Positions 5,268-64,000 of a stretch of 64,000 nucleotides of DNA are shown piece by piece. The position numbers were made by a program, and so were the translations under genes. Location of the stretch: the NCBI GenBank assembly GCA_963827235.1, contig CAWHAE010000008.1:256001-320000 (forward strand), written 5' to 3'. The notes under the pieces were generated by a model. The model had not been told where the DNA came from. It made no database searches and worked only from the letters and a program-made list of their open reading frames with translations. The number at the start of each line of letters is the position of its first letter. The stretch's first letter is position 1. This DNA is from an uncultured bacterium. Lineage in GTDB: Bacteria; Chloroflexota; UBA5177; JANWHV01.

Positions 5268-7647
5268 TCACCTTCGCGGCAGTACCACCGCCTGTTTGAT
5301 TCCATCTGCGACGACCGTGCCGGGGCGAGAGCGATCCTGGAGCGGCAGATCCCGCACTTCCAGCACGATCGCCCTCCCTGCGCCGTCCACCGCTTCAAGG
5401 GAAGCCCGTTCGTCGACGCTGAACACGCTTACCACGGGGCCCGACTTGTCGCTGATGCGTATGCTCTTCACTCCGCTGCCGTCGCGCCCCTGGACCGGGT
5501 ACTCGTGGACGGCAGTCCTGCGTCCAACCCCGGCGGCCGTGAGGACCACTATCTGCGACGTACCGTGCACCACCATGCCTTGCACGACCGAGTCGCCTTC
5601 GTCGAGACGTATGGCACGCACGCCGCCCGCTACCCGCTTGGTTGCCCGCACGTCGTCGAGCGAGAATCGAATTGCTTTACCCTGCCGGGTGTGGAGCAGT
5701 GTCTCCGCCTCCCCTGACGCTGTCTCGACCGTGAGCAGCTCGTCGGCCTGGTCGAGGTTGATTGCGACGACGGGCGCCGAGCGCGCGTGCAGGTAATCCG
5801 CGGCAGGCGTGCGCTTCACCTGGCCCTGCCGGGTACAAAAGACCAGGTAGGGCGGCACATTCGCGCCGACGGCGACTACGGATACGATCCGCTCGCCGGC
5901 CGCCAGGTCTACCAGCGTCGCAACAGCTACGCCGTGATCGCTCCTCCGTGCCACCGGCGAGATCTTGTGTACGAAAACGCCGTGGCAGGCGCCGGAGGCG
6001 GTGAACAGGAGAAGCAGGTCCCGCACATTACACGTGACGTACTCGTGAGGCGTCTCGCGGGCACTGGCGCGCCCGCCGAATTGATCGAGCCGCTTGAGCG
6101 TGCCGTCGTCACCAAGAGCGACCACAGTCGATAGGTTGGGCACCAGATCCTCGATACTGGTTGGCACGTTGGCCGCGTCGTCGACGATGCGCGTGCGGCG
6201 ATCATCGCCGAAGCGTTGCTGCAGGTCGCGAAGCTCGGCGACCATGATGTCCAGGATTTTGCGAGGCGAGGCCAGCACGGCCTCGAGCTCGCGGACCAGG
6301 CGCTGGACCTCGACGCAGCTCGTCCACGATCTTCTTCCGCTCGAGCTGGGAGAGTCGAGCCAACCGCATGTCGAGGATGGCGCGTGCCTGGGTGGGGGTA
6401 AGGCCCAGCCGCTCCACCAGGGCCTTGAGCGCGGCGTCCGTCGACTGCGCTGCTCTGATCAGAGCGATCACCGTGTCGAGAGAGCCCAGTGCCTTGTTGA
6501 GGCCTTCGAGCACGTGCAACCTGCTGCTTGCCTCGTCAAGGTCGAATTGTGTGCGCGCTGTGATCACCGACTTGCGATGATCGATGAACACGTTGAGGGC
6601 GCGCTTGAGAGTAATCTGGTGCGGGCTGCCGTCGATAAGACCCAACATGTTGATGCCGAACGTGATCTCCAGGTTCGACTTCTGATAGAGAGTCGTGAGC
6701 ACCTTGGCTGGGTCGGCGTCTCGCTTCAAGTCGATGGCGATGCGCATGCCACTGCGGTCGGATTCGTCTCGCATGGCGGCAATGCCCTCAAGCTTTCGAT
6801 CTCGTACCAGGTCAGAGATGGACTCGATGAGCTGCGACTTCTTCACCTGATACGGCAGCTCGGAGATTGCGATCGTCTGGCGCCCTCTTCCGTCGTCTTC
6901 AATGCTGGCCACGCCGCGCAGCAGGATGCGGCCCTGACCGGTGGCGTATGCGCGATCGATCCCTTCGCGACCGACGATGATGCCCCCGGTGGGAAAGTCG
7001 GGCCCAGGCATGGCGGCGACGAGAGCGTCGGACGGTGTGTCCGGCGCGTTCGCCAGCATGATGATCGCTTCGCTCAGCTCGCGCAGATTGTGAGGCGGCA
7101 CATTCGTCGCCATACCCACGGCGATGCCGTCGGCTCCATTCAGCATGAAGAGCGGCACTTTGCCCGGCAGTACCGCCGGCTCCCGCATCGAGCTGTCGAA
7201 GTTGTCGACGAACGGCACGGTGTTCTTCTCAAGATCGGAGAGCAGCTCCTCGGCCAGCTCGGTGAGGCGCACCTCGGTATAGCGCATCGCCGCCGCGTTG
7301 TCGCCGTCGATCGAGCCGAAATTGCCTTGTCCATCTACCAGCGGGTAGCGCAGGCTGAAGCTCTGCGCGAGACGGACCAGCGCATCGTATACAGCTGTGT
7401 CGCCGTGCGGGTGGTACTTGCCGAGCACGTCGCCCACGATGCGGGCGCTCTTCTTGTATGCGCTGTCGTGGCGAAGGCCAAGCTCGTACATGCCGTAAAG
7501 CACGCGACGCTGCACCGGCTTGAGCCCGTCGCGGACGTCAGGCAGGGCACGCGCGGTAATGACGCTCATCGCGTAGTCGACGTAAGCCTCGCGCATCTTG
7601 TCGTCAAGATCGACGTCCAGGATCGATAGAGCGGGTGCGTCTGCCAT
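5268..7647 (-). CDS. gyrA: Type IIA topoisomerase subunit A (GyrA/ParC family), frameshifted near 6310-6315
   Basis: [29 protein letters not shown] (catalytic Tyr); ORFs 6202-7647 and 5268-6278 join by a 1-nt shift (..KIVDEL / [18 protein letters not shown]..); beta-pinwheel CTD lacking the GyrA-box, so possibly ParC-like. Confidence 0.9.
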
Positions 7648-7659
7648 CTGTCATATACC

Positions 7660-42085: not shown

Positions 42086-42666
42086 TCGAATCGCTGCGAG
42101 GCGTGGTCGAATTGTGCACGGGAGACGCCGCCATTCTGCGGTTGGGTGCCGTGAGCATTCGGCTTGGGATCACGGCGGAGACAGCACGCGGGCTCAGACC
42201 CGGCGGGACCGTGGAGCTGTTCACTCACCTATTCTTCCGTGAGGATGTAGTGGCGCTCTACGGCTTCTCTTCGCGTGAGGAGCGCGCGATGTTCGAGGAG
42301 CTGCTCGGCGTTACCGGCGTAGGGCCCCGCGTGGCCCTGGGCTTCCTCTCGGCATTCACGCCCAGTGGACTGCGCGAAGCTATCGACGGCGAGGACGTTG
42401 TCCGGTTGACACGCGTGCCGGGGGTTGGGAGGAAAACGGCGCAGCGAGTCGTGCTTGAGCTCAGGGGCAAGCTGGTGGCCGCTGCTCCCGCGGGACCGAC
42501 CAGCCAGCTTTCGCCTCGCGACCAGGAGCTGATTCAGGTGCTGGCCGGCCTGGGGTACACTTCGACAGAGGCGGGTGAGGCAGTGCGGCACAGCAATGAC
42601 GTGGCCGCCGAGGGTACCGATGAAGATAGACTCCGAGCTGCCCTCAGTTACTTCGCTGCCTACTGA
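42082..42666 (+). CDS. ruvA: Holliday junction branch migration protein RuvA
   Basis: RED...[30 protein letters not shown]. Confidence 0.95.
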
Positions 42667-42674
42667 GCTGCACG

Positions 42675-43843
42675 TTGCGGCGTACCAGTCGGACGACCAG
42701 CCCCCAGGGCCGGACGACGATGGCGTCCCCCCGGAGGCCGCCAAGGCGGAGTCTGCCCCAGGCGCGGGCCTGCCAGAGTCGTCCTGAGCCGTTCAGCCCA
42801 AGGTCGCGTATTGCCGTCCTGATCATCGTCGGCGTGCTCGGGTTTTCTGTTTCTGCTGCGCGTGTCCAGCATACTGGCACCGTTTCTGTGGGCTATCGTG
42901 GTCTGGCCTACATTCTCAACCCTTTGGTGGCCGCCCTGCGCAGTAAGGCGAGGATGCCGCGACCGATGGCAGTAGTGTGCATCTACCTGGTGGCCATCGC
43001 GATCATCGCGGGACTGTTGTACTTGGCTCTTCCTCGCATCAACACGCAGGTCGCTCAGCTCACCAACGAGCTGCCTTCGATCACCGCCGATTTGCAGGCG
43101 CGCTACTTTGGCTCGACGAGCACTCCGTTGGACGTCGCTGGTTTCTCCATCGACGTGCAACAGGTCACGAAGCAGGTCGCCGACAGCCTGAATTCCTTCC
43201 TGAACGGCTTTTTCGGCAGTGCCATCTCTGCGGTAGTTACTACCGTCGAGCGCATCACGCAGCTGCTGCTTTTCGTCATCGTGACGTTCTACTTGATGCT
43301 CGATGCCGAAAAGATCGGCGAGCAGCTCAGGCAGGCGATCCCCAGTGCGTACCGCGACGAGACCGTGGCGTTGCGTCGCGCATGAACTACGTGCTGCGTC
43401 AGTACATGCAGGCTCAGCTCATCCTGATCGCGATCATGGGCACGGCGAGTTTCGTCGTGCTGACGATCATGAACGTGCGGTTTGCTATCGCCCTGGCCCC
43501 GATCGTCGGGTTGCTCGAGATCTTCCCGATCATTGGGCCGTTCGCGGCGATCACCATGGTCACGGTCATGGCGTTGTTCTCTACGCCGCCGTTCGGCCTT
43601 TCGACCACGGCGTCGGCGATCATAGTCTGCCTTATCTTCTTTATCATGCGCCAGATCGAGGATTACGCAGTGATACCGAACATCGTCGGACACGCCGTGA
43701 AGCTTCACCCTGCGCTGATACTCTTTGCTGTTGCCTCGGGAACCACGCTCGGCGGACCGCTGGGCCTCTTTCTTGCAGTACCGGTCACCGGCGCGCTGAG
43801 GGTGCTGGCCGCGCACATCTATCAGAAGACGTTCCCGGCGTGA
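42675..43843 (+). CDS. AI-2E family transporter, several frameshifts (probable sequence errors)
   Basis: LAYILNPLV, FYLMLD, FPIIGP, QIEDYAVIP.IVG..V.LHP, G.LG..LAVP spread over different frames (shifts near 42780, 42840, 42900, 43375); start uncertain. Confidence 0.8.
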
Positions 43844-51501: not shown

Positions 51502-51568
51502 CTCGTTTGCTCCCTCGCGCTTGGAATGCTGTACGCACGCATGATACTCTTCCTGAGGTCTGTTGTCT

Positions 51569-53198
51569 ATGTCGACGTCAGGAGCCGTGCCGTTGAGTAA
51601 TACGTCGGAAGCCGGCGATCGGTTCACCAGCAAGGCGAATACAGGAGAAGAGCGAGATCCGCGGCTCTCGGACTTGAGGCGCCGCAAGGCGGCCGTGCTG
51701 GTGGATCACGAGGCGCGTGCGGCAAAGGCACAGCACGGCCGGGGCAAGCTGACCGCGCGAGAACGAGTAGCGCTGCTGGTCGACGGTGACAGCTTCGACG
51801 AGCTGGATATGTTTGCCGTGCATCGTTCCAGTGCTTTCGGTTTGGCCGAACGGCGCTATCCCGGCGACGGCGTCGTTACCGGCTTTGCCACCGTAGACGG
51901 CCGCCGTGTTGCCGTGTACTCGCAGGACTTCACCGTGTTCGGGGGCTCGCTTGGTGAGGTAGTGGCGGAGAAGATCGTCAAGTTGATGGACATGGCGGTA
52001 AGGGTAGGCGTGCCGATCATCGGCATCAATGACTCAGGCGGCGCTCGCATCCAGGAGGGCGCCGTGAGCCTGGCCGGATACGCCGACATCTTCTACCGGA
52101 ACGTGCGGGCCTCGGGCGTCGTGCCGCAGATCTCGGTGATCGCCGGTCCCTGCGCCGGTGGCGCCGTGTATTCGCCTGCCATTACGGACTTCGTCTTCAT
52201 GGTCCGCGGTATCGGCAAGATGTATATCACCGGACCGGACGTGATTCGGGCCGTAACCGGTGAGGAAGTCGAGCACGAGCTGCTGGGAGGCGCCGACACG
52301 CACTCCACACTGAGCGGCGTGGCTCACTTCGCGGCCGACGACGAGCGTGAGGTCTTTAGCATGGTCCGGGTGCTGCTTGACTACTTGCCGTCGAACAACT
52401 TGCAGAGATCCGCCGCTGAGGCAAGCTGGCGACGACCCGGACCGGCGGGACGCTTCGCTGGATTCGGTGGTGCCGGATTCCCCGTCGCGGCCGTACGACA
52501 TGCACGCCGTGCTGCGCAGCCTGCTGGACAGGGGTGAGTTCTTCGAGGTGCAGGAATCCTACGCGCGAAACATCCTGATTGGACTCGGCAGGCTTGATGG
52601 CCGCTCGGTGGGCGTCGTCGCAAACCAGCCGTCCCAGAAAGCGGGAACACTTGACATCAACGCTTCGACGAAGGCCGCGCGCTTCATCCGGTTTTGCGAC
52701 GCCTTCAACATCCCGCTGCTAACCCTGGTTGATGTGCCGGGCTTTCTTCCCGGGACTGACCAAGAGTACAACGGTATCATACGGCACGGGGCCAAGCTGC
52801 TCTATGCGTTTGCCGAGGCGACCGTGCCGAAGATCACGGTTATCACGCGCAAGGCGTATGGCGGCGCATACAACGTAATGTGCTCCAAGCATATCGGAGC
52901 CGACTTCAACTTCGCCTGGCCTTCCGGCGAGATCGCTGTCATGGGCCCATCGGGTGCCGTCTCGGTGATATTCAGGCGCGAGATTGCCGCTTCACAGGAG
53001 CCTGCCAAACGGGCTGCAGAGCTGACGGCAGATTATCAGAACCGCTTCGCCAATCCCTACGTCGCTGCTGAACGCGGCTTCCTCGACGCCGTGATCGAGC
53101 CGCGCGACACCAGGCCGACTCTCATACGAGCCTTTGCGACGGCCGCCGGCAAGCGCGAGCCTCGCCCCTCCCGGAAGCACGGCAACATCCCCCTCTGA
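51569..53198 (+). CDS. pccB: Acyl-CoA carboxylase carboxyltransferase (beta) subunit, frameshift near 52405-52430
   Basis: [52 protein letters not shown] across ORFs 51563-52537 and 52347-53198. Confidence 0.9.
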
Positions 53199-57106: not shown

Positions 57107-58480
57107 TCAGGCACTCGAGTCCGTCCAGAGGCCGTCCGCACCGGCACGCCCCAGGAAACACGGCTCGAGCGTGTTCTGCAGGTTTCTGTGTGAGTGCGTG
57201 TAGACGTTGAGATAGTTGCTTGTAAGGCCGTGCCATACCGCACCCTCCTGCCGCTCCCACAGTACGGCCTGAACAGAGCCGGCGAAGCGGCGGTGGAAGC
57301 TTGCCTTGAGCTCGGCGGCGAGCAGGCGCACGCGTTCGCTGCGTGCCGCCTTGGCGCTCTCCGCCACGTGGTCGGGTAGGTGCGCAGCCGCGGTCCCAGG
57401 CCGCGAAGAATAGCGGAACACATGGATACCGGCGAAGCGCAGGCGTTCGAGCGTGGCGACGGTCTGCTCGAAATCGACCTCCGTCTCACCCGGAAAACCG
57501 ACCATCACATCCGTCGTCACAGCGAGCTCATCGATTGACTCCCGTGCCAGCGCTACGAGAGCCTCGTACTGCCGGACGTCGTACTGACGTCGCATGGACC
57601 GCAGGACGGTGTCGCAGCCGCTCTGCAGCGGCACGTGAACGTGACGGCAGAGCCGAGGATCGCCCCACAGACGTAGCCATGCTGGCTGCAGATCCTGCGG
57701 CTCGATGCTGCTGACGCGGATGCGTAGTCGAGACGTACCGGCCAGCAGGGCGGACAGCAGCGAGGCGAGGTTCGGCGCACCGGGCAGGTCGCGTCCATAG
57801 CTGCCAAGCAGTATCCCCGTGAGTACGATCTCGCGGTAGCCGTGCGCTTCTAGGGCCTGCGCGGCAGTGACCGCCTCGGCCAACGGCACGCTGCGGGGGC
57901 CGCCTCGGGCCCGCGGTATGATGCAGAAGCTGCAACCGGCGTTGCACCCGTCCTGGACTTTTAGTGTGGCACGCGTGCGCTGACGGTCCGCTCCCACGGC
58001 GACGGGCAGCAGAGTGGCCGGCAGGCCTGCGCGTCCGAGCCGCGGCTCTCGAGCGGTCTTTGTCATCGAACCGACCGTGCAGCTTCGCCGCAGGGCGAGC
58101 TCCTCTTCGACAAGCTCGACGAGCTGATCCTTGTCGCGATTAGGGATGACGACGAGGTTTCCGGGCAGCAGGTTGCCGAGCTGACGGTTGGCGACGGACA
58201 CGTAGCAGCCGGTCGCTGCCACCAAGGCCAGCGGGTTGGCGCGACCGGCCTGACGGATCTCCTGTCGTGATTTTCGATCGGCTACGGCAGTGACCGTACA
58301 GGTGTTGACCACGTAGACGTCCGCTTCGTCCTCAAACGGCACGATCTGGTAGCCGCGGTCCAGGAAACTCGACATAAAGCTCTCGGTCTCGCTCGAGTTC
58401 ACCTTGCAGCCCAGGGTGGAGAAGGCGACTCGAGGAGCATCATCGGGCGACATCGCAGCCGGGGTGTCAGCCACAGGCAT
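57107..58480 (-). CDS. mtaB: tRNA t6A methylthiotransferase MtaB
   Basis: TLGCKVN..E, NTCTVT, TGCY, QDGCNAGCSFC, H.PLQSG, VGFPGET. Confidence 0.93.
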   Translation of the reverse strand: MPVADTPAAMSPDDAPRVAFSTLGCKVNSSETESFMSSFLDRGYQIVPFEDEADVYVVNTCTVTAVADRKSRQEIRQAGRANPLALVAATGCYVSVANRQLGNLLPGNLVVIPNRDKDQLVELVEEELALRRSCTVGSMTKTAREPRLGRAGLPATLLPVAVGADRQRTRATLKVQDGCNAGCSFCIIPRARGGPRSVPLAEAVTAAQALEAHGYREIVLTGILLGSYGRDLPGAPNLASLLSALLAGTSRLRIRVSSIEPQDLQPAWLRLWGDPRLCRHVHVPLQSGCDTVLRSMRRQYDVRQYEALVALARESIDELAVTTDVMVGFPGETEVDFEQTVATLERLRFAGIHVFRYSSRPGTAAAHLPDHVAESAKAARSERVRLLAAELKASFHRRFAGSVQAVLWERQEGAVWHGLTSNYLNVYTHSHRNLQNTLEPCFLGRAGADGLWTDSSA

Positions 58481-58819
58481 CACCTCTCATGCCAGGCCGC
58501 GGTCTGCCTGCTGAGCCAGGTTGCCGGCCGGTCCGCGGGCCGCGCGGGACAGTCTAGCAAATGTGATTGTCGGCATAGGAAGCATGATAGCGATAATGAC
58601 GGCAGCAGACGTACCTGGGCCTGGCGATTACCGGGCGCATGCCATACTCTGGCGCCGCCCAACTGTGCGGGCGGGAGCGGCAGCTCTGCCTGAGCCTGCC
58701 GGCTCCAGGTGGCCACAGACGGCCCTCGCTCGCGGCCAGGCCGGTATCGGCGTAGACGAGCCTCCGGTATCCGTCGATGCGATTCGAGACTCTCGGGCCA
58801 AGCGCGGGCTCGCGGCGAC

Positions 58820-60515: not shown

Positions 60516-61523
60516 TTGGGCGAGAAAGCGCTGATAATCGGAGTAAGCTCGCAGGACGGCTCGTATCTCGCCGATCTCCTGCTGACCAAGGGGTACGAAG
60601 TGGTCGGCACCATCCGGCATACTACGAGCTACGTCAAAGAGAACATCCAGCATCTTGCGGGACGTATCGCCATCGAAGCCGCTGACCTGCTGGACGCCGA
60701 GAGCGTCGTGCACGTGGTCAAGAAGCATTGTCCCAGCGAGATCTACAATATCGCGGCACAGTCCATTCCCGCGGACAGCTGGACCCACCCCTACTACACG
60801 GGCGAGATCACCGGCTTGGGCGTGGTGCGCGTCATGGAGGCCGTGAGGCATCACGCCCCGCGGGCAAAGGTCTACCAGGCTACCAGCCGCGAGATCTTCG
60901 GCCACATCGAAGACGGCACTGCGAACGAGTCGACGCTTATCGACGCGAACAACCCCTATGGCATTGCCAAGGCGTATGCGCATATGATGGCCCGCTGCTA
61001 TCGCGAGTCGTATGGTCTCTTCTCCTGCTCCGGCATCTGTTTCAACCACGAGAGCCCCCGGAGGAGCCTGCACTTCGTGACCAGGAAGATCACCGCGGCA
61101 GTGGCCTGCATCGTGCATGGCATCGACAACCCTCCGCTGGACGAGCTGGGGCGCCCGCTGATCGGTGGCGACAGGAAACTGCACCTGGGTTGGCTCGATT
61201 CGCCTCGCGACTGGGGTTACGCGAAGGAATATGTCGAGGCGATGTGGCTCATGCTGCAACGGGAATCGCCGAAGGACTACGTCATCGCTACCAATGTCAC
61301 GCACACGGTACGCGACGTCTGCCGAGCGGCATTTGGCCACGTTGGGCTCGACTGGGAGGACTATGTGATCAGCGATCCGGCCCTGCTGAGGCCGACGGAG
61401 ATCACCTGCCTGCAAGGTGATTATTCCCTGGCGAAAGCCGAGCTTGGGTGGGAGCCGCGGACGACGTTCGATGAGCTCATCGAGCTCATGGTCGACGCCG
61501 ACTTGCAGCGCTTCAAGCAGTAA
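60516..61523 (+). CDS. gmd: GDP-mannose 4,6-dehydratase family
   Basis: G..QDGSYLA, YNIAAQS, PYG.AK, FNHESPRR, FVTRKI, RDWG, LRPTE. Confidence 0.88.
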   Translation: MGEKALIIGVSSQDGSYLADLLLTKGYEVVGTIRHTTSYVKENIQHLAGRIAIEAADLLDAESVVHVVKKHCPSEIYNIAAQSIPADSWTHPYYTGEITGLGVVRVMEAVRHHAPRAKVYQATSREIFGHIEDGTANESTLIDANNPYGIAKAYAHMMARCYRESYGLFSCSGICFNHESPRRSLHFVTRKITAAVACIVHGIDNPPLDELGRPLIGGDRKLHLGWLDSPRDWGYAKEYVEAMWLMLQRESPKDYVIATNVTHTVRDVCRAAFGHVGLDWEDYVISDPALLRPTEITCLQGDYSLAKAELGWEPRTTFDELIELMVDADLQRFKQ

Positions 61524-61799
61524 TGCTAGTGACCAAGTCGTGTCGCCTCGAGCATGCCTTGCCATCCCGGGCCGTTCGCGCTGGACACCACTCCCGCGAT
61601 GGGGAAGCCAGGCTGCAGATGCTGGTCGGTGAAGCCGTGGCGATGCGCCCAGAGCCGCCAGAGGCGATGTCCTCGTCGAGCGCGCGCTCGATCAGACGCG
61701 CTGCGGGCGACGGCCGTTCACGCGGGACGACGCAGCCAATCGGCGACGAGTGGCCCCCGGGACAATGGTTGCACGGACGCCTCGAATCTCACTTGACCG

Positions 61800-62170
61800 C
61801 CCAGCATGCATGCCGGCAGCTCCGACGCGACGCGCCGGCGCTCCACATGGTCGAGTGCGGCCTGGTCTGCACGACCGTGCATGGCACAGCGGTCGACCAT
61901 CGCAACATCCGGCGGCGCTTCACGCGTCTTTGTCGGCTCTCAGGCGTTCCGCGCGTTCGCATCTACGATCTCCGGCACACCGCCACCAGCCTGATGATCG
62001 ACGCCGGCGCGGATCTGAAAGCCGCGAGCGAGGCGCTTGGTCATACCGATCCGCGGATCACGATGAAGGTCTATCGTCATGTGCGCGGCGACCAGCGGGC
62101 CCAGGCCATTGCCCTTCTCTCCGATGCGATCACGCATGCCGATCCACCAACGGAGCTCGATCAGGATTGA
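61800..62170 (+). pseudogene. C-terminal remnant of a tyrosine recombinase/integrase
   Basis: RIYDLRHTATSLM, LGH.DP.IT..VY.H boxes present; N-terminal domains and first catalytic Arg box not recognisable upstream; left boundary approximate. Confidence 0.8.
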
Positions 62171-62192
62171 CATCGCACAATCATCGCAAAAA
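62171..62192 (+). repeat. Tandem direct repeat right after integrase stop (arm-type att site-like)
   Basis: CATCGCACAAT CATCGCAAAAA. Confidence 0.55.
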
Positions 62193-62608
62193 TGGTCCCG
62201 GCAGAGGGTTCGTTCCACCCCGTCCGGCGCCATGTTCCCCCTGAGATCGCGGTTCTGATGTGCCGATTCCGTCCCCCGGACCTTCTGAAGTCGTTTCAGA
62301 AGATAGTGTGCCTAACGCTCACATCGAGATCTCCGACACCTAGCATGCGGAAGGTGGTGGCAGGCAAAGCCCGTCGATGACAATCCAACGCCGGGCACCA
62401 TAATCTAGACAAGGTCCCGCGCGCACATGCCTGAGTCGAGGGCAAGCGCGCAAGTCGTACAATAGAGTCTGTAAAGTCGGTGCCGCGCGTCTGACTTTCC
62501 AACCTGGAACTCAGGCATGTCATCCCGGCGAGTTGCTGGGCCAGACGTTCACGCGAGTGCGCCGCGACAGTCTCGACTGATGGTGCGGCGGGTTGGGGGT
62601 CGGCTCGG

Positions 62609-63538
62609 ATGGAAGATTCTGGCGTTGTACATTCAATCGCGCGGATTTCGCCGAAGGTTCGACTTGGTCCTGCGGGCATCCACGTGTTCGACCGGAAAAC
62701 GGGGACCAATGTCCTTCTCGACGAGGTCCAGGTGCCTCCTGCGTCGTGGTCCATCACGCCTAGGCACGTTGGAATCGCGCTCACGAACGCGTGCGATCTC
62801 TCCTGCCCCTATTGCTTCGCGCCAAAGAAGCCTGCGGCACTGGACTTCGATCAGGTGGTCGGCTGGCTTGAGGAGTTGGATTCTGGTGGGAGCCTATCCG
62901 TTGGATTCGGCGGGGGTGAGCCAACTCTCTACCGCCGACTCGGAGAGCTATGTCACTACGCCGCCAGTCGCACTCAGCTTGCAGTCACGTTAACTACGCA
63001 CGGCCATCACCTGACTCCCAACCTTATTGGCGCACTAACCGGGGCCGTTCACTTTGTGCGCGTCAGTGTGGATGGGGTTGGGCTGACTTACGAGGCACTA
63101 CGCGGGCGCTCATTTTCGGCTCTGCGCAAGCGACTTGAAGCCGTCAGGTCGCTTGCGCCACTCGGGATCAACTTCGTCGTCAACCGCATCACGTTCGCCG
63201 ATCTCGATGCCGCAATCGAGCTTGCCGCAAATGCAGGCGCAGCACAGTTCCTTTTGCTCCCCGAACAGCCTGTTCGAGGGCGTGGTGGCATTGATGAGAA
63301 AACTCGTGAGGCGTTACAACGCTGGGTCCGCTACTATCATGGCTCAGTGCCATTAGCTGTGAGCGAAAGTGGCGCCGTCGGCTTGCCAAGCTGCAACCCG
63401 CTGGATGGCGAGAGCGGACTACGCGCGTATGCACACATCGACGCGTCGGGCGTCCTAAAAGCCTCCTCGTATGAGATCGACGGTGTGTCAATTGGGCAAG
63501 GGGGGCTCGTGCAGGCGCTCGACACACTGCGGGGGTAA
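62609..63538 (+). CDS. Radical SAM protein of unknown function
   Basis: LTNACDLSCPYC (CxxxCxxC), FGGGEPTL, TTHG, VSVDG; degenerate C-terminal SPASM/Twitch-like hairpin. Confidence 0.92.
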   Translation: MEDSGVVHSIARISPKVRLGPAGIHVFDRKTGTNVLLDEVQVPPASWSITPRHVGIALTNACDLSCPYCFAPKKPAALDFDQVVGWLEELDSGGSLSVGFGGGEPTLYRRLGELCHYAASRTQLAVTLTTHGHHLTPNLIGALTGAVHFVRVSVDGVGLTYEALRGRSFSALRKRLEAVRSLAPLGINFVVNRITFADLDAAIELAANAGAAQFLLLPEQPVRGRGGIDEKTREALQRWVRYYHGSVPLAVSESGAVGLPSCNPLDGESGLRAYAHIDASGVLKASSYEIDGVSIGQGGLVQALDTLRG

Positions 63539-63556
63539 CGGATACGGGAGGCTAGA

Positions 63557-63967
63557 ATGAAGATTTGGCAAGGGTATGGTTCCGAGCACTCTTCGAATCT
63601 CGTCATGATCGGTCGCTTCAAGGGGGTGGACGACGCAGACAAGGCGCGCGAGGCCATCGAGCGGTTGACCACGCAGGTCAAGGTAGAACAAGATGAGAAA
63701 CGTCTCGATGTCGGCGGGAGGACTGAGCGGTACTCGGATCAAGTACGCAAGCTCCTGAGGGAACTTGACCTCTGGACTCTTGCTCCCATTGAACTCGAGC
63801 AGTTCCTGTATGACGTCTCCGTCACGGCCGAAAATGACCGTGTCGTCGTGAAGACCGATGAAGCTGATGTTTCGGCGTTCCTCAAGATCCTGCTCGATCG
63901 CGGCGCGCGCGTTGAGGTGTTCTCCGCCCACCACTATCCCGAGGATGAGTCGAAGAAGACGCGGTGA
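63557..63967 (+). CDS. DUF6375-like protein
   Basis: MKIWQGYGSEHSSNLVMIG.F N-terminus and EVFSAH.YP C-terminus recalled as DUF6375; RBS GGGAGG; 18 bp after radical SAM stop. Confidence 0.75.
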   Translation: MKIWQGYGSEHSSNLVMIGRFKGVDDADKAREAIERLTTQVKVEQDEKRLDVGGRTERYSDQVRKLLRELDLWTLAPIELEQFLYDVSVTAENDRVVVKTDEADVSAFLKILLDRGARVEVFSAHHYPEDESKKTR

Positions 63968-63989
63968 GGCTCCCCGGATCGGAGGACCA

Positions 63990-64000
63990 ATGCCAGCACT
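63990..64000 (+). CDS. Start of a third operon gene (truncated by window end)
   Basis: GGAGG (63981-63985) followed by ATG CCA GCA at 63990. Confidence 0.5.

Follow-up and report, generated by a model that had tools for sequence, protein, structure and literature searches.

A probable further copy, possibly broken, of the Avap1-Avap2-Avs2 anti-phage operon beside a tRNA-Ala gene in a Chloroflexota genome

What is a tightly spaced gene pair, one encoding a radical S-adenosylmethionine (SAM) enzyme and the other a DUF6375-like protein, doing at the end of some 61 kb of mostly core genes? The pair lies at the edge of the window, as we call the whole 64,000-nucleotide (nt) stretch analyzed here (bases 256001-320000 of contig CAWHAE010000008.1, or C8, from the uncultured Chloroflexota assembly GCA_963827235.1). 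An initial annotation took it to be an uncharacterized mobile multi-gene module, possibly anti-phage, or else a protein-maturation system. We followed the pair into locus L002, the 20 kb of the same contig that begin at base 316001, where an L002 coordinate plus 60000 equals the window coordinate. Our own evidence concerns the identity, order and conservation of the genes, the mobility context of the cassette and a predicted interface between the first two gene products. Sequence comparisons with published systems lead us to regard the locus as very probably a copy of the Avap1-Avap2-Avs2 anti-phage operon, for which KpAvs2 is the type example. This system is already known from a 2024 publication, and what is new here is a further, possibly broken copy.

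The cassette consists of three genes (lengths in amino acids, aa):

62609..63538, + strand: avap1 homologue, radical SAM protein, 309 aa (PF04055 Radical_SAM, E 1.9e-15)
63557..63967, + strand: avap2 homologue, DUF6375 protein, 136 aa (PF19902, E 1e-48)
63990..64000 within the window and on to L002:8215 (C8 base 324215), + strand: avs2, from its start codon (PADLOC Avs2)

Open reading frame (ORF) listing and direct reading agree with the layout described in the initial annotation, with all three genes co-oriented and tightly spaced, and both of its family labels proved correct. The TAA stop codon of avap1 ends at 63538 and is followed, after an 18-nt gap, by the avap2 ATG at 63557 with GGGAGG upstream; the avap2 TGA stop ends at 63967 and is followed, after a 22-nt gap, by the avs2 ATG at 63990 with GGAGG upstream. 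The PF19902 match spans profile positions 1-131 of 132 and scores 165.7 bits against a cut-off of 27.5, and PF19902 is the family by which Avap2 was defined in the original report (Nat Commun 2024;15:9860, PMC11564622).

Beyond base 64000, the third gene was taken from the same contig, where it occupies two overlapping frames. Frame A runs over L002:3990..4673. Frame B (L002:4349..8215; 1,288 codons), in which a GCGKT Walker A motif occurs, matched six Avs2 models in PADLOC (PDLC02161-02166), the best being PDLC02164 (E 2.1e-90, positions 337-952 of 1504). Its nearest solved chain, and its sole solved relative by sequence, is PDB 9o4e, which is described as "AVAST type 2 anti-phage system protein Avs2" (E 2.9e-23, residues 341-947). 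By these matches, the third gene is identified as an Avs2-type nucleoside triphosphatase (NTPase) of the STAND (signal transduction ATPases with numerous domains) class. Read through a frameshift that is discussed below, the product would be about 1,408 aa long and would have its Walker A lysine at approximately residue 334.

The same three genes have been described and tested as an anti-phage operon in Klebsiella pneumoniae S_15PV (PMC11564622). In that report, the radical SAM protein Avap1 is assigned to PF04055 and the DUF6375 protein Avap2 to PF19902, both being encoded beside Avs2, and KpAvs2 combines a nuclease of the Mrr type with a STAND NTPase and a sensor at the C-terminus. In E. coli, the operon gives protection through abortive infection with DNA degradation, and defence is abolished by the KpAvs2 mutations K71A (nuclease) and K337A (NTPase) and by deletion of the C-terminus. 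KpAvs2 protects only weakly by itself, and Avap2 binds a helical bundle in KpAvs2 according to co-immunoprecipitation. Avap1 is needed against T2 and dispensable against SECphi18, and avap2 could not be deleted from the operon with avap1 and avs2 present. Avap2 is found beside about 5% of Avs2 homologues, most of which also have Avap1, whereas typical Avs2 proteins act alone. The authors describe the roles of both accessory proteins as unclear. Within the collection of papers searched, full-text searching found DUF6375 only in this paper and its preprint, and found no further paper addressing the roles of Avap1 and Avap2. The statement in the initial annotation that the gene pair had no characterized function is out of date, the operon having been published in 2024.

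We compared the window proteins with the Klebsiella proteins by eye, using construct sequences from the supplement of that report, and indirectly through two other genomes. The N-terminal tail of KpAvap2 is almost the same as that of the window protein, the KpAvap1 construct is collinear with the window Avap1 from residue ~15, and, counted from MPEVNW, K71 of KpAvs2 lies in WQCKW, which corresponds to the WQC[K/R]W motif of the window protein. The indirect comparison relied on Nitrospirae bacterium JdFR-85 (L009) and Syntrophobacterales bacterium Delta_02 (L023), both of which are given as operon genomes in the legend of Fig. 1B (PMC11564622). Identities between the window and JdFR-85 were 54% for Avap1, 56% for Avap2, 64% for the Avs2 N-terminus and 47% for the rest of Avs2.

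Conservation of the triad was examined more widely. We collected 741 DUF6375 homologues at E <= 0.001 and used an alignment of 25 of these to scan one genome per species in genome_contigs. The scan returned 154 relatives, and we retained the best 80 loci; conservation counts below refer to these 80. The four window translations were compared by BLASTP with all ORFs of the 80 loci. A co-oriented radical SAM gene stood directly upstream of the DUF6375 gene in 80/80 loci (47-64% identity), and its stop codon overlapped the DUF6375 start by 4 nt in 61 of them. The Avs2 N-terminus lay directly downstream in 79 loci (46-66% identity), the sole miss (L076) being due to a contig end, and the rest of Avs2 was found in 76, the four misses again being contig ends. 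The gene-neighbourhood analysis proposed in the initial annotation thus bore out the pairing of the first two genes. The related loci come from cyanobacteria, actinobacteria, Chloroflexota, Acidobacteriota, Planctomycetota, several proteobacterial classes, Bacillota, a Deinococcus relative and one Methanothrix metagenome-assembled genome. The last of these, which is archaeal (L075, DATLBD010000019.1), carries DUF6375 and full-length Avs2 together with a radical SAM ORF that matches query residues 190-308 only.

The gene order is conserved and the distribution is patchy, and several features mark the cassette as mobile. PF19902 occurs in only 2 of 401 sampled genomes of the phylum, including this one, and in none of four genomes of the same genus. 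The same triad is present on 16 plasmid records (12 from Vibrio; 11 typed as conjugative) and on one IMG/VR contig. On the Vibrio harveyi conjugative plasmid NZ_CP025539.1 (L097, 78169-83606), the triad lies ~0.6 kb from annotated qnrVC6 and dfrA resistance genes; here and on the Picosynechococcus plasmid NZ_CP016481.1 (L096), RefSeq labels the three products "radical SAM protein", "DUF6375 family protein" and "hypothetical protein". In the window contig, GC content around the cassette (L002:2400-9000) is 0.56-0.61, compared with 0.63-0.70 outside. The radical SAM gene has a GC content at third codon positions (GC3) of 0.629, the DUF6375 gene one of 0.708 and avs2 one of 0.645, compared with a median of 0.77 and a minimum of 0.718 for 32 Pfam-supported core ORFs, so the visual impression of a lower third-position GC was sound.

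The immediate surroundings of the cassette also carry traces of integration:

61523..62170 (215-aa ORF), + strand: C-terminal fragment of a tyrosine integrase (PF00589, E 8.6e-11)
62118..62300 (L002:2118-2300), no strand: left copy (copy 1) of a degenerate ~180-nt repeat, just after the integrase fragment, resembling the tRNA-Ala 3' half and its downstream flank
L002:8314-8492: copy 2 of the repeat, just after the avs2 stop codon
L002:10214-10395: copy 3 of the repeat, formed by the 3' half of the true tRNA-Ala(GGC) gene and its downstream flank

The integrase ORF starts at the stop codon of a GDP-mannose 4,6-dehydratase gene. It matches only positions 101-169 of the 172 in the Phage_integrase model, and only its last ~70 residues are integrase-like; NCBIfam Xer and integron-integrase models likewise match it through their C-terminal ends only, far under their cut-offs. 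Judged from these matches, the ORF is a truncated integrase in which the complete catalytic domain and the N-terminal DNA-binding part are not present, which agrees with the earlier description of a decayed integrase. The three repeat copies are pairwise 66-72% alike, with a 24-nt core at 92%. Copies 1 and 2 are 69% alike over 170 nt, and copy 1 is 66% like the tRNA-Ala region. In a shuffle test with 500 shuffles per pair, shuffled sequence never attained the score observed for any of the three pairs, and 300 random 260-nt pieces of the locus gave best scores of 17-20, compared with 29-47 for the repeats. Copies 1 and 2 bracket exactly the three-gene cassette. The repeat extends past the 3' half of tRNA-Ala and ~110 nt downstream, with a hairpin-like AAAAATGGCGCC...GGCGCCATTTT stretch. 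A repeat of that length exceeds the usual attachment-site core.

We infer that the repeats are the remains of two successive insertions at tRNA-Ala. Downstream of avs2 there are two minus-strand genes, followed by tRNA-Ala(GGC) and then by the genes for ribosomal proteins L27 and L21. The two genes lie between the right-hand repeat and the tRNA gene:

L002:8516-8890, - strand: 124-aa gene without a family match
L002:8978-9880, - strand: 300-aa gene with a weak PIN_2 match (E 0.0021, under cut-off)

PADLOC gave no convincing match for these two genes, with a single hit at 0.031, and they may have been brought in by a second insertion at this tRNA, older than that of the cassette. The tRNA-Ala gene with the L27 and L21 genes is conserved in all four same-genus genomes, and in the stretches fetched from them none of the island genes and no dehydratase gene was found beside tRNA-Ala/L27/L21. 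Only one of these stretches (L093) has more than 10 kb upstream, and synteny differs, so the island borders cannot be fixed by comparison with an empty site. The cassette lies in a decayed integrative island next to tRNA-Ala. Together with the Avs2 identity of the third gene, the patchy distribution and the plasmid-borne copies, the tRNA-derived repeats bear out the suggestion of a mobile multi-gene, possibly anti-phage module.

Pfam scanning of 119 high-GC3 ORFs in the rest of the window found core genes, including gyrA, gyrB, yidC, ruvABC and tatAC and genes for the RNase P protein, a sigma factor and a MiaB-like enzyme, as the initial annotation had indicated. A second, unrelated radical SAM gene lies at 57110-58486 (- strand) and encodes UPF0004 and Radical_SAM domains; by its domains, it is an ordinary core gene for a MiaB/RimO-type methylthiotransferase. 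Promoter and terminator scanning of the operon region gave nothing above chance, with two sites of ATGACA-16-CATAAT grade compared with a mean of 2.2 in shuffled sequence. One such site, upstream of the operon, is:

62377..62404, + strand: weak, chance-level sigma-70-like promoter match (ATGACA-16-CATAAT, 10 of 12 positions)

Other defence genes in the neighbourhood were sought as well, a further check proposed for this locus. Nineteen related loci with full flanks were scanned with PADLOC (104 flanking ORFs, E <= 1e-10), and 13 flanking ORFs in 8 of the 19 loci matched defence models, a count made without a background control. The neighbours are:

L009: BREX BrxC and PglX
L038: type I restriction-modification
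L044: Mokosh MkoA
L006: Avs4-like protein and IetA
L005, L039 and L052: further matches
L010: a doubtful oxidoreductase match

Defence neighbours do occur in some related loci, and their enrichment is not proven.

If the window operon behaves as the Klebsiella operon does, defence would proceed as follows. Avs2 would be an NTPase of the STAND class, similar to nucleotide-binding domain and leucine-rich repeat (NLR) receptors, with an N-terminal Mrr-type nuclease and a C-terminal sensor, by homology to KpAvs2. The sensor would bind a phage protein, either the large terminase or small phage proteins, and binding would switch on the NTPase module so that the nuclease degrades DNA. The infected cell would be arrested before phage progeny are made (abortive infection). 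Avap2 would be an accessory subunit, bound constitutively and required by Avs2 for full defence, and Avap1 would be needed against some phages only. The phenotype, the nuclease effector and the binding of Avap2 to Avs2 are taken from the original report (PMC11564622), and by analogy the window copy would be expected to behave in the same way.

Several points weigh against identifying the locus as a functional member of this family. The anti-phage phenotype is known for KpAvs2 only, and that of the window copy would follow by analogy. Identity to the tested Klebsiella system was judged by eye from the construct sequences and indirectly through JdFR-85 and Delta_02. The count of defence neighbours lacks a background; it agrees with the original report on the occurrence of such neighbours and leaves enrichment unproven. 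Pfam gave no nuclease-domain match at E <= 0.1 for the N-terminal part of avs2. An Atlas feature search gave a lead only, a cluster (score 0.93, 183 shared features) with PF04471 Mrr_cat present in 53% of its members, and the Mrr assignment depends on that lead and on the published description of KpAvs2 (PMC11564622). Within this region, QPGVEF is conserved in 72 of the 79 loci that have the Avs2 N-terminus. The position equivalent to K71, which is catalytic in KpAvs2, is arginine in the window protein (WQCRW, codon 71 at L002:4200-4202). Finally, avs2 is not one open frame in the assembly but is broken at L002:4494-4495, and if this break is real the copy lacks an intact sensor-effector.

The arginine was considered as a sign of decay and dropped, because arginine also occupies this position in 29/79 homologues (lysine in 50/79), many of which have intact ORFs. 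There is thus a large arginine subgroup of the putative Mrr-type motif at the K71 position.

The break in avs2 leads to the first alternative, in which the frameshift is real and the cassette is a dead remnant that decays together with its integrase and has nothing functional left. We consider this a substantial possibility, although one that falls short of even odds. Homologues are followed by frame A up to L168 (codon L002:4491-4493) and by frame B from R50 (codon L002:4496-4498). The stretch that separates these codons is only two bases long, whereas homologues have a full codon there, so that by alignment and coordinates one base is missing. The state of avs2 in the 80 related loci was as follows:

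44 loci: one ORF, with the match running past query residue 1200
18 loci: one ORF, with the match ending at query residue 1029-1080 and a divergent C-terminus
3 loci: split into two ORFs
6 loci: ending early inside the contig
9 loci: cut by the contig end

In 62 of the 80 loci, therefore, avs2 is one ORF to at least query residue 1029, and the single break at L002:4494-4495 sets the window copy apart from these. Decay would also fit an adjoining integrase reduced to its C-terminal fragment, flanking repeats that are merely 66-72% alike, and an avap1/avap2 junction with an 18-nt gap in place of the 4-nt overlap seen in most related loci. However, apart from this one break, the avs2 frame stays open over 1,288 codons, and both avap1 and avap2 retain all of the invariant residues of their families. 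Moreover, avs2 is split or ends early in 9/80 related loci as well, many of them from metagenome-assembled genomes.

In the subgroup with divergent C-termini (L007-L018, L025, L029, L030, L035, L042, L057 and L058), the Avs2 BLASTP match stops at ~1029-1080 and the ORF continues. The last ~200 residues of Avs2 diverge much faster than the rest, as expected for a sensor surface under phage selection.

At least three core genes of the window are also frame-split with contiguous coverage of their Pfam models, which makes assembly indels likely. In gyrA (- strand), PF00521 positions 1-404 lie on 6205-7650 and the C-terminal repeats lie in another frame on 5271-6458. In a PF01039 carboxyltransferase gene (+ strand), model positions 2-233 lie on 51557-52534 and positions 227-493 on 52314-53195. 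In an AI-2E transporter gene (+ strand), positions 31-180 lie on 42630-43382 and positions 181-324 on 42947-43840. That ~61 kb of core sequence should contain three breaks, and that an essential gene should be among those affected, indicates indel errors in the assembly and suggests single-base errors at about one per 20 kb. At this rate, a 4.2-kb gene would be hit about 1 in 5 times. One public sequencing run contained 0.19 of the sampled words, and its contigs span L002:4827-4977 and L002:5018-5168, not the frameshift site. Assembly error is a serious alternative to a real break, and we would put about a third of our belief on avs2 being truly pseudogenized. The window copy may thus be inactive, or the assembly may be wrong at the frameshift base. 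More generally, pseudogene calls in GCA_963827235.1 need read support.

Whether or not this copy works, its family raises the question of what Avap1 and Avap2 do. Avap1 has a single CxxxCxxC motif, CDLSCPYC (C62, C66 and C69), and a GGGEP SAM-binding motif, both invariant in a 40-sequence alignment. In the same alignment, the N-terminal stretch is strongly conserved (R18, G23, F27, G32, N34 and L36), SPASM/twitch cysteines are not conserved, and the sole invariant cysteine outside the CxxxCxxC motif is C115, with none conserved towards the C-terminus. The NCBIfam SPASM-maturase matches of Avap1 all fall far under their cut-offs. In a structure model of Avap1 (predicted local distance difference test score, pLDDT, 90.1; predicted template modelling score, pTM, 0.88), a partial barrel comes after three strands at the N-terminus (residues 16-37). 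Foldseek matched this model to SuiB (E 1.8e-15), SkfB (E 1.2e-14) and viperin (E 1.4e-12), and then to DesII, BlsE, MoaA, CteB and PqqE. In VIA-align, SkfB scored Z 25.6, with 279 residues aligned over model residues 14-309 at a root-mean-square deviation (rmsd) of 3.3. SuiB scored Z 24.2 over model residues 10-309, and viperin scored Z 22.9, with 234 residues aligned over model residues 50-307 at an rmsd of 2.2. The SkfB and SuiB alignments take in the N-terminal strands of Avap1, whereas viperins (Z <= 22.9) align from residue ~50. A profile of the 40 Avap1 sequences likewise matched SkfB more strongly (E 6.7e-18) than viperin-like enzymes (E 2.4e-11). By sequence profile and predicted structure, Avap1 thus appears closest to the peptide maturases SkfB and SuiB.

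Avap2 gave fewer leads. Residues W4, E10, H11, S12, N14-G19 and F21 are invariant in the 25-sequence alignment, and over 81 sequences the mean frequency of the top residue is 0.86 for residues 1-21 compared with 0.53 for residues 22-100. This near-invariant tail (residues 1-21) is the most conserved part of the family. Modelled alone, Avap2 has a pLDDT of 82.3, with residues 1-12 and 127-136 below 50. Foldseek found no PDB match for Avap2 at E <= 1e-3, the top rows being designed ferredoxin-like proteins at E ~0.05, and the Avap2 profile found no solved sequence at E <= 1.

The two proteins were also modelled as an Avap1-Avap2 complex. The median score was 0.83 (runs of 0.82, 0.87 and 0.83), and the best of three controls scored 0.00; of 157 solved complexes, 116 attain the mark used for this score, as do 2 of 215 mismatched pairs. 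Agreement between the runs extends to at least 38% of contacts, and partner pLDDT is at least 60. On the Avap2 side, the modelled interface comprises residues 1-21 together with 109 and 122-125. On the Avap1 side, it comprises the strand 31-39, residues 52-57, the GGGEP loop 96-102 and the barrel-lining residues 125-129, 148-151, 212-217 and 240-287. The residue pairs with the lowest error are Avap2 1-7 along Avap1 31-38, and Avap2 6-7 against Avap1 125, 127 and 149. The model supports a placement, new here, in which the near-invariant N-terminal tail of Avap2 would occupy the barrel mouth of Avap1. The way in which peptide maturases hold substrates is comparable.

The complex model gives shape to a second alternative, in which Avap1 would be a stripped-down enzyme resembling the maturases of ribosomally synthesized and post-translationally modified peptides (RiPPs). 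It would bind the Avap2 tail by strand addition and modify it, or else the tail would be a pseudo-substrate plug that idles Avap1; in either case, the state of Avap2 would tune Avs2. This proposal is tentative, in our estimate less probable than its negation, and it is compatible with identification of the locus as the known operon. Its own rivals are that Avap2 is a structural adaptor only and that Avap1 acts on a small molecule. In addition to the complex score and the greater likeness of Avap1 to SkfB and SuiB than to viperins, the proposal draws on an Avap2 tail that is the best conserved part of the protein and yet disordered when modelled alone, and on the invariant G32, N34 and L36 in the Avap1 strand with which this tail pairs. 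The 4-nt stop/start overlap in most related loci suggests coupled translation of the two genes. However, a model score is not binding, and solved maturase-peptide complexes exist (5v1t and 4k38), so that the high score may reflect likeness to them. SkfB and SuiB use auxiliary Fe-S clusters, and the SPASM/twitch cysteines are not conserved in Avap1. In the published experiments, KpAvs2 defence against SECphi18 needs Avap2 and not Avap1 (PMC11564622), and any modification is therefore not required for the basic role of Avap2. Avap2 is not known to be modified, and the mass spectrometry in that report used N-terminally tagged Avap2 and strains named without Avap1, and therefore neither supports nor excludes modification of Avap2. 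Based on the complex model, the 4-nt overlap and the reported failure to delete avap2 beside avap1 and avs2, we rate a substrate or pseudo-substrate role for the Avap2 tail as possible but distinctly short of probable. The complex model favours Avap1 acting on Avap2, so that the protein-maturation option of the initial annotation stays possible.

The weakest alternative, that Avap1 is a viperin-like (pVip) maker of chain-terminating nucleotides and a second effector, an analogy that the initial annotation had drawn, is very improbable: pVip models were the only defence matches of Avap1 in PADLOC (E 1.3e-18 and 4.2e-13), NCBIfam viperin_w_prok was its second-best match and viperin structures align with it (Z 22-23, rmsd 2.2-2.4, ~235-240 residues), but the pVip match covers only the radical SAM core (Avap1 residues 56-204, model positions 4-159 of 257), the NCBIfam viperin model NF038283 scores 51.6 bits against a cut-off of 180, the Avap1 profile is nearer to SkfB than to viperins and, according to the original report, no pVip-type nucleotides were detected when cells carrying the full operon were infected and the AlphaFold2 model of Avap1 has no NTP site (PMC11564622).

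Returning to the Avap1-Avap2-Avs2 identification, the locus is ordinary as a discovery, being one more copy of an operon described and tested in 2024. The RefSeq labels on plasmids lag behind that description, and scans based on names will keep flagging the triad as unknown. The accessory roles were left open in the original report (PMC11564622), and the predicted threading of the Avap2 tail may bear on what a radical SAM enzyme does in NLR-like immunity. Our most specific suggestion, which we hold to be somewhat unlikely as it stands, is that Avap1 and Avap2 form an enzyme-substrate or pseudo-substrate pair within an NLR-like immune operon, with the state of Avap2 setting the range or threshold of the receptor. 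If true, Avap2 would be the first example, for a bacterial pattern-recognition receptor, of an accessory subunit modified by a radical SAM enzyme. Such a pairing could also account for the need for Avap1 against certain phages alone, and for the failure to delete avap2 beside avap1 and avs2.

Among known systems, pVip has the radical SAM core fold (Z 22-23) and an anti-phage role in common with Avap1, whereas Avap1 falls under the family cut-off with a match to the core only, and the original paper reports no viperin products and no NTP pocket (PMC11564622). SkfB (6efn) and SuiB (5v1q, 5v1s and 5v1t) are the best structural and profile matches of Avap1, and the predicted position of the partner tail at the barrel mouth resembles maturase-peptide binding. 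Avap1 differs from them in being ~100 residues shorter and in lacking conserved SPASM/twitch cysteines. There is no transporter, protease or short precursor gene near avap1, and its candidate substrate would be a folded 136-aa protein. Single-gene Avs2 proteins (AVAST type 2; PDLC02161-02166 and 9o4e) share the STAND NTPase core and part of the next region with the window protein, and the sequence match to 9o4e covers the core only, without the N-terminal effector and the far C-terminus. The closest system is the KpAvs2 operon, which has the same gene order and orientation, a PF04055 Avap1 and a PF19902 Avap2. Both Avs2 proteins have an N-terminal domain with QPGVEF...WQCxW, which in the window protein is a putative nuclease-type domain, a Walker A lysine (~334 here and K337 there) and a long C-terminal region. 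The window operon differs in its distant host, with about 47-64% identity to named relatives, in the arginine at the K71 position, in the single frameshift in avs2 and in the 18-nt gap that replaces the overlap between avap1 and avap2.

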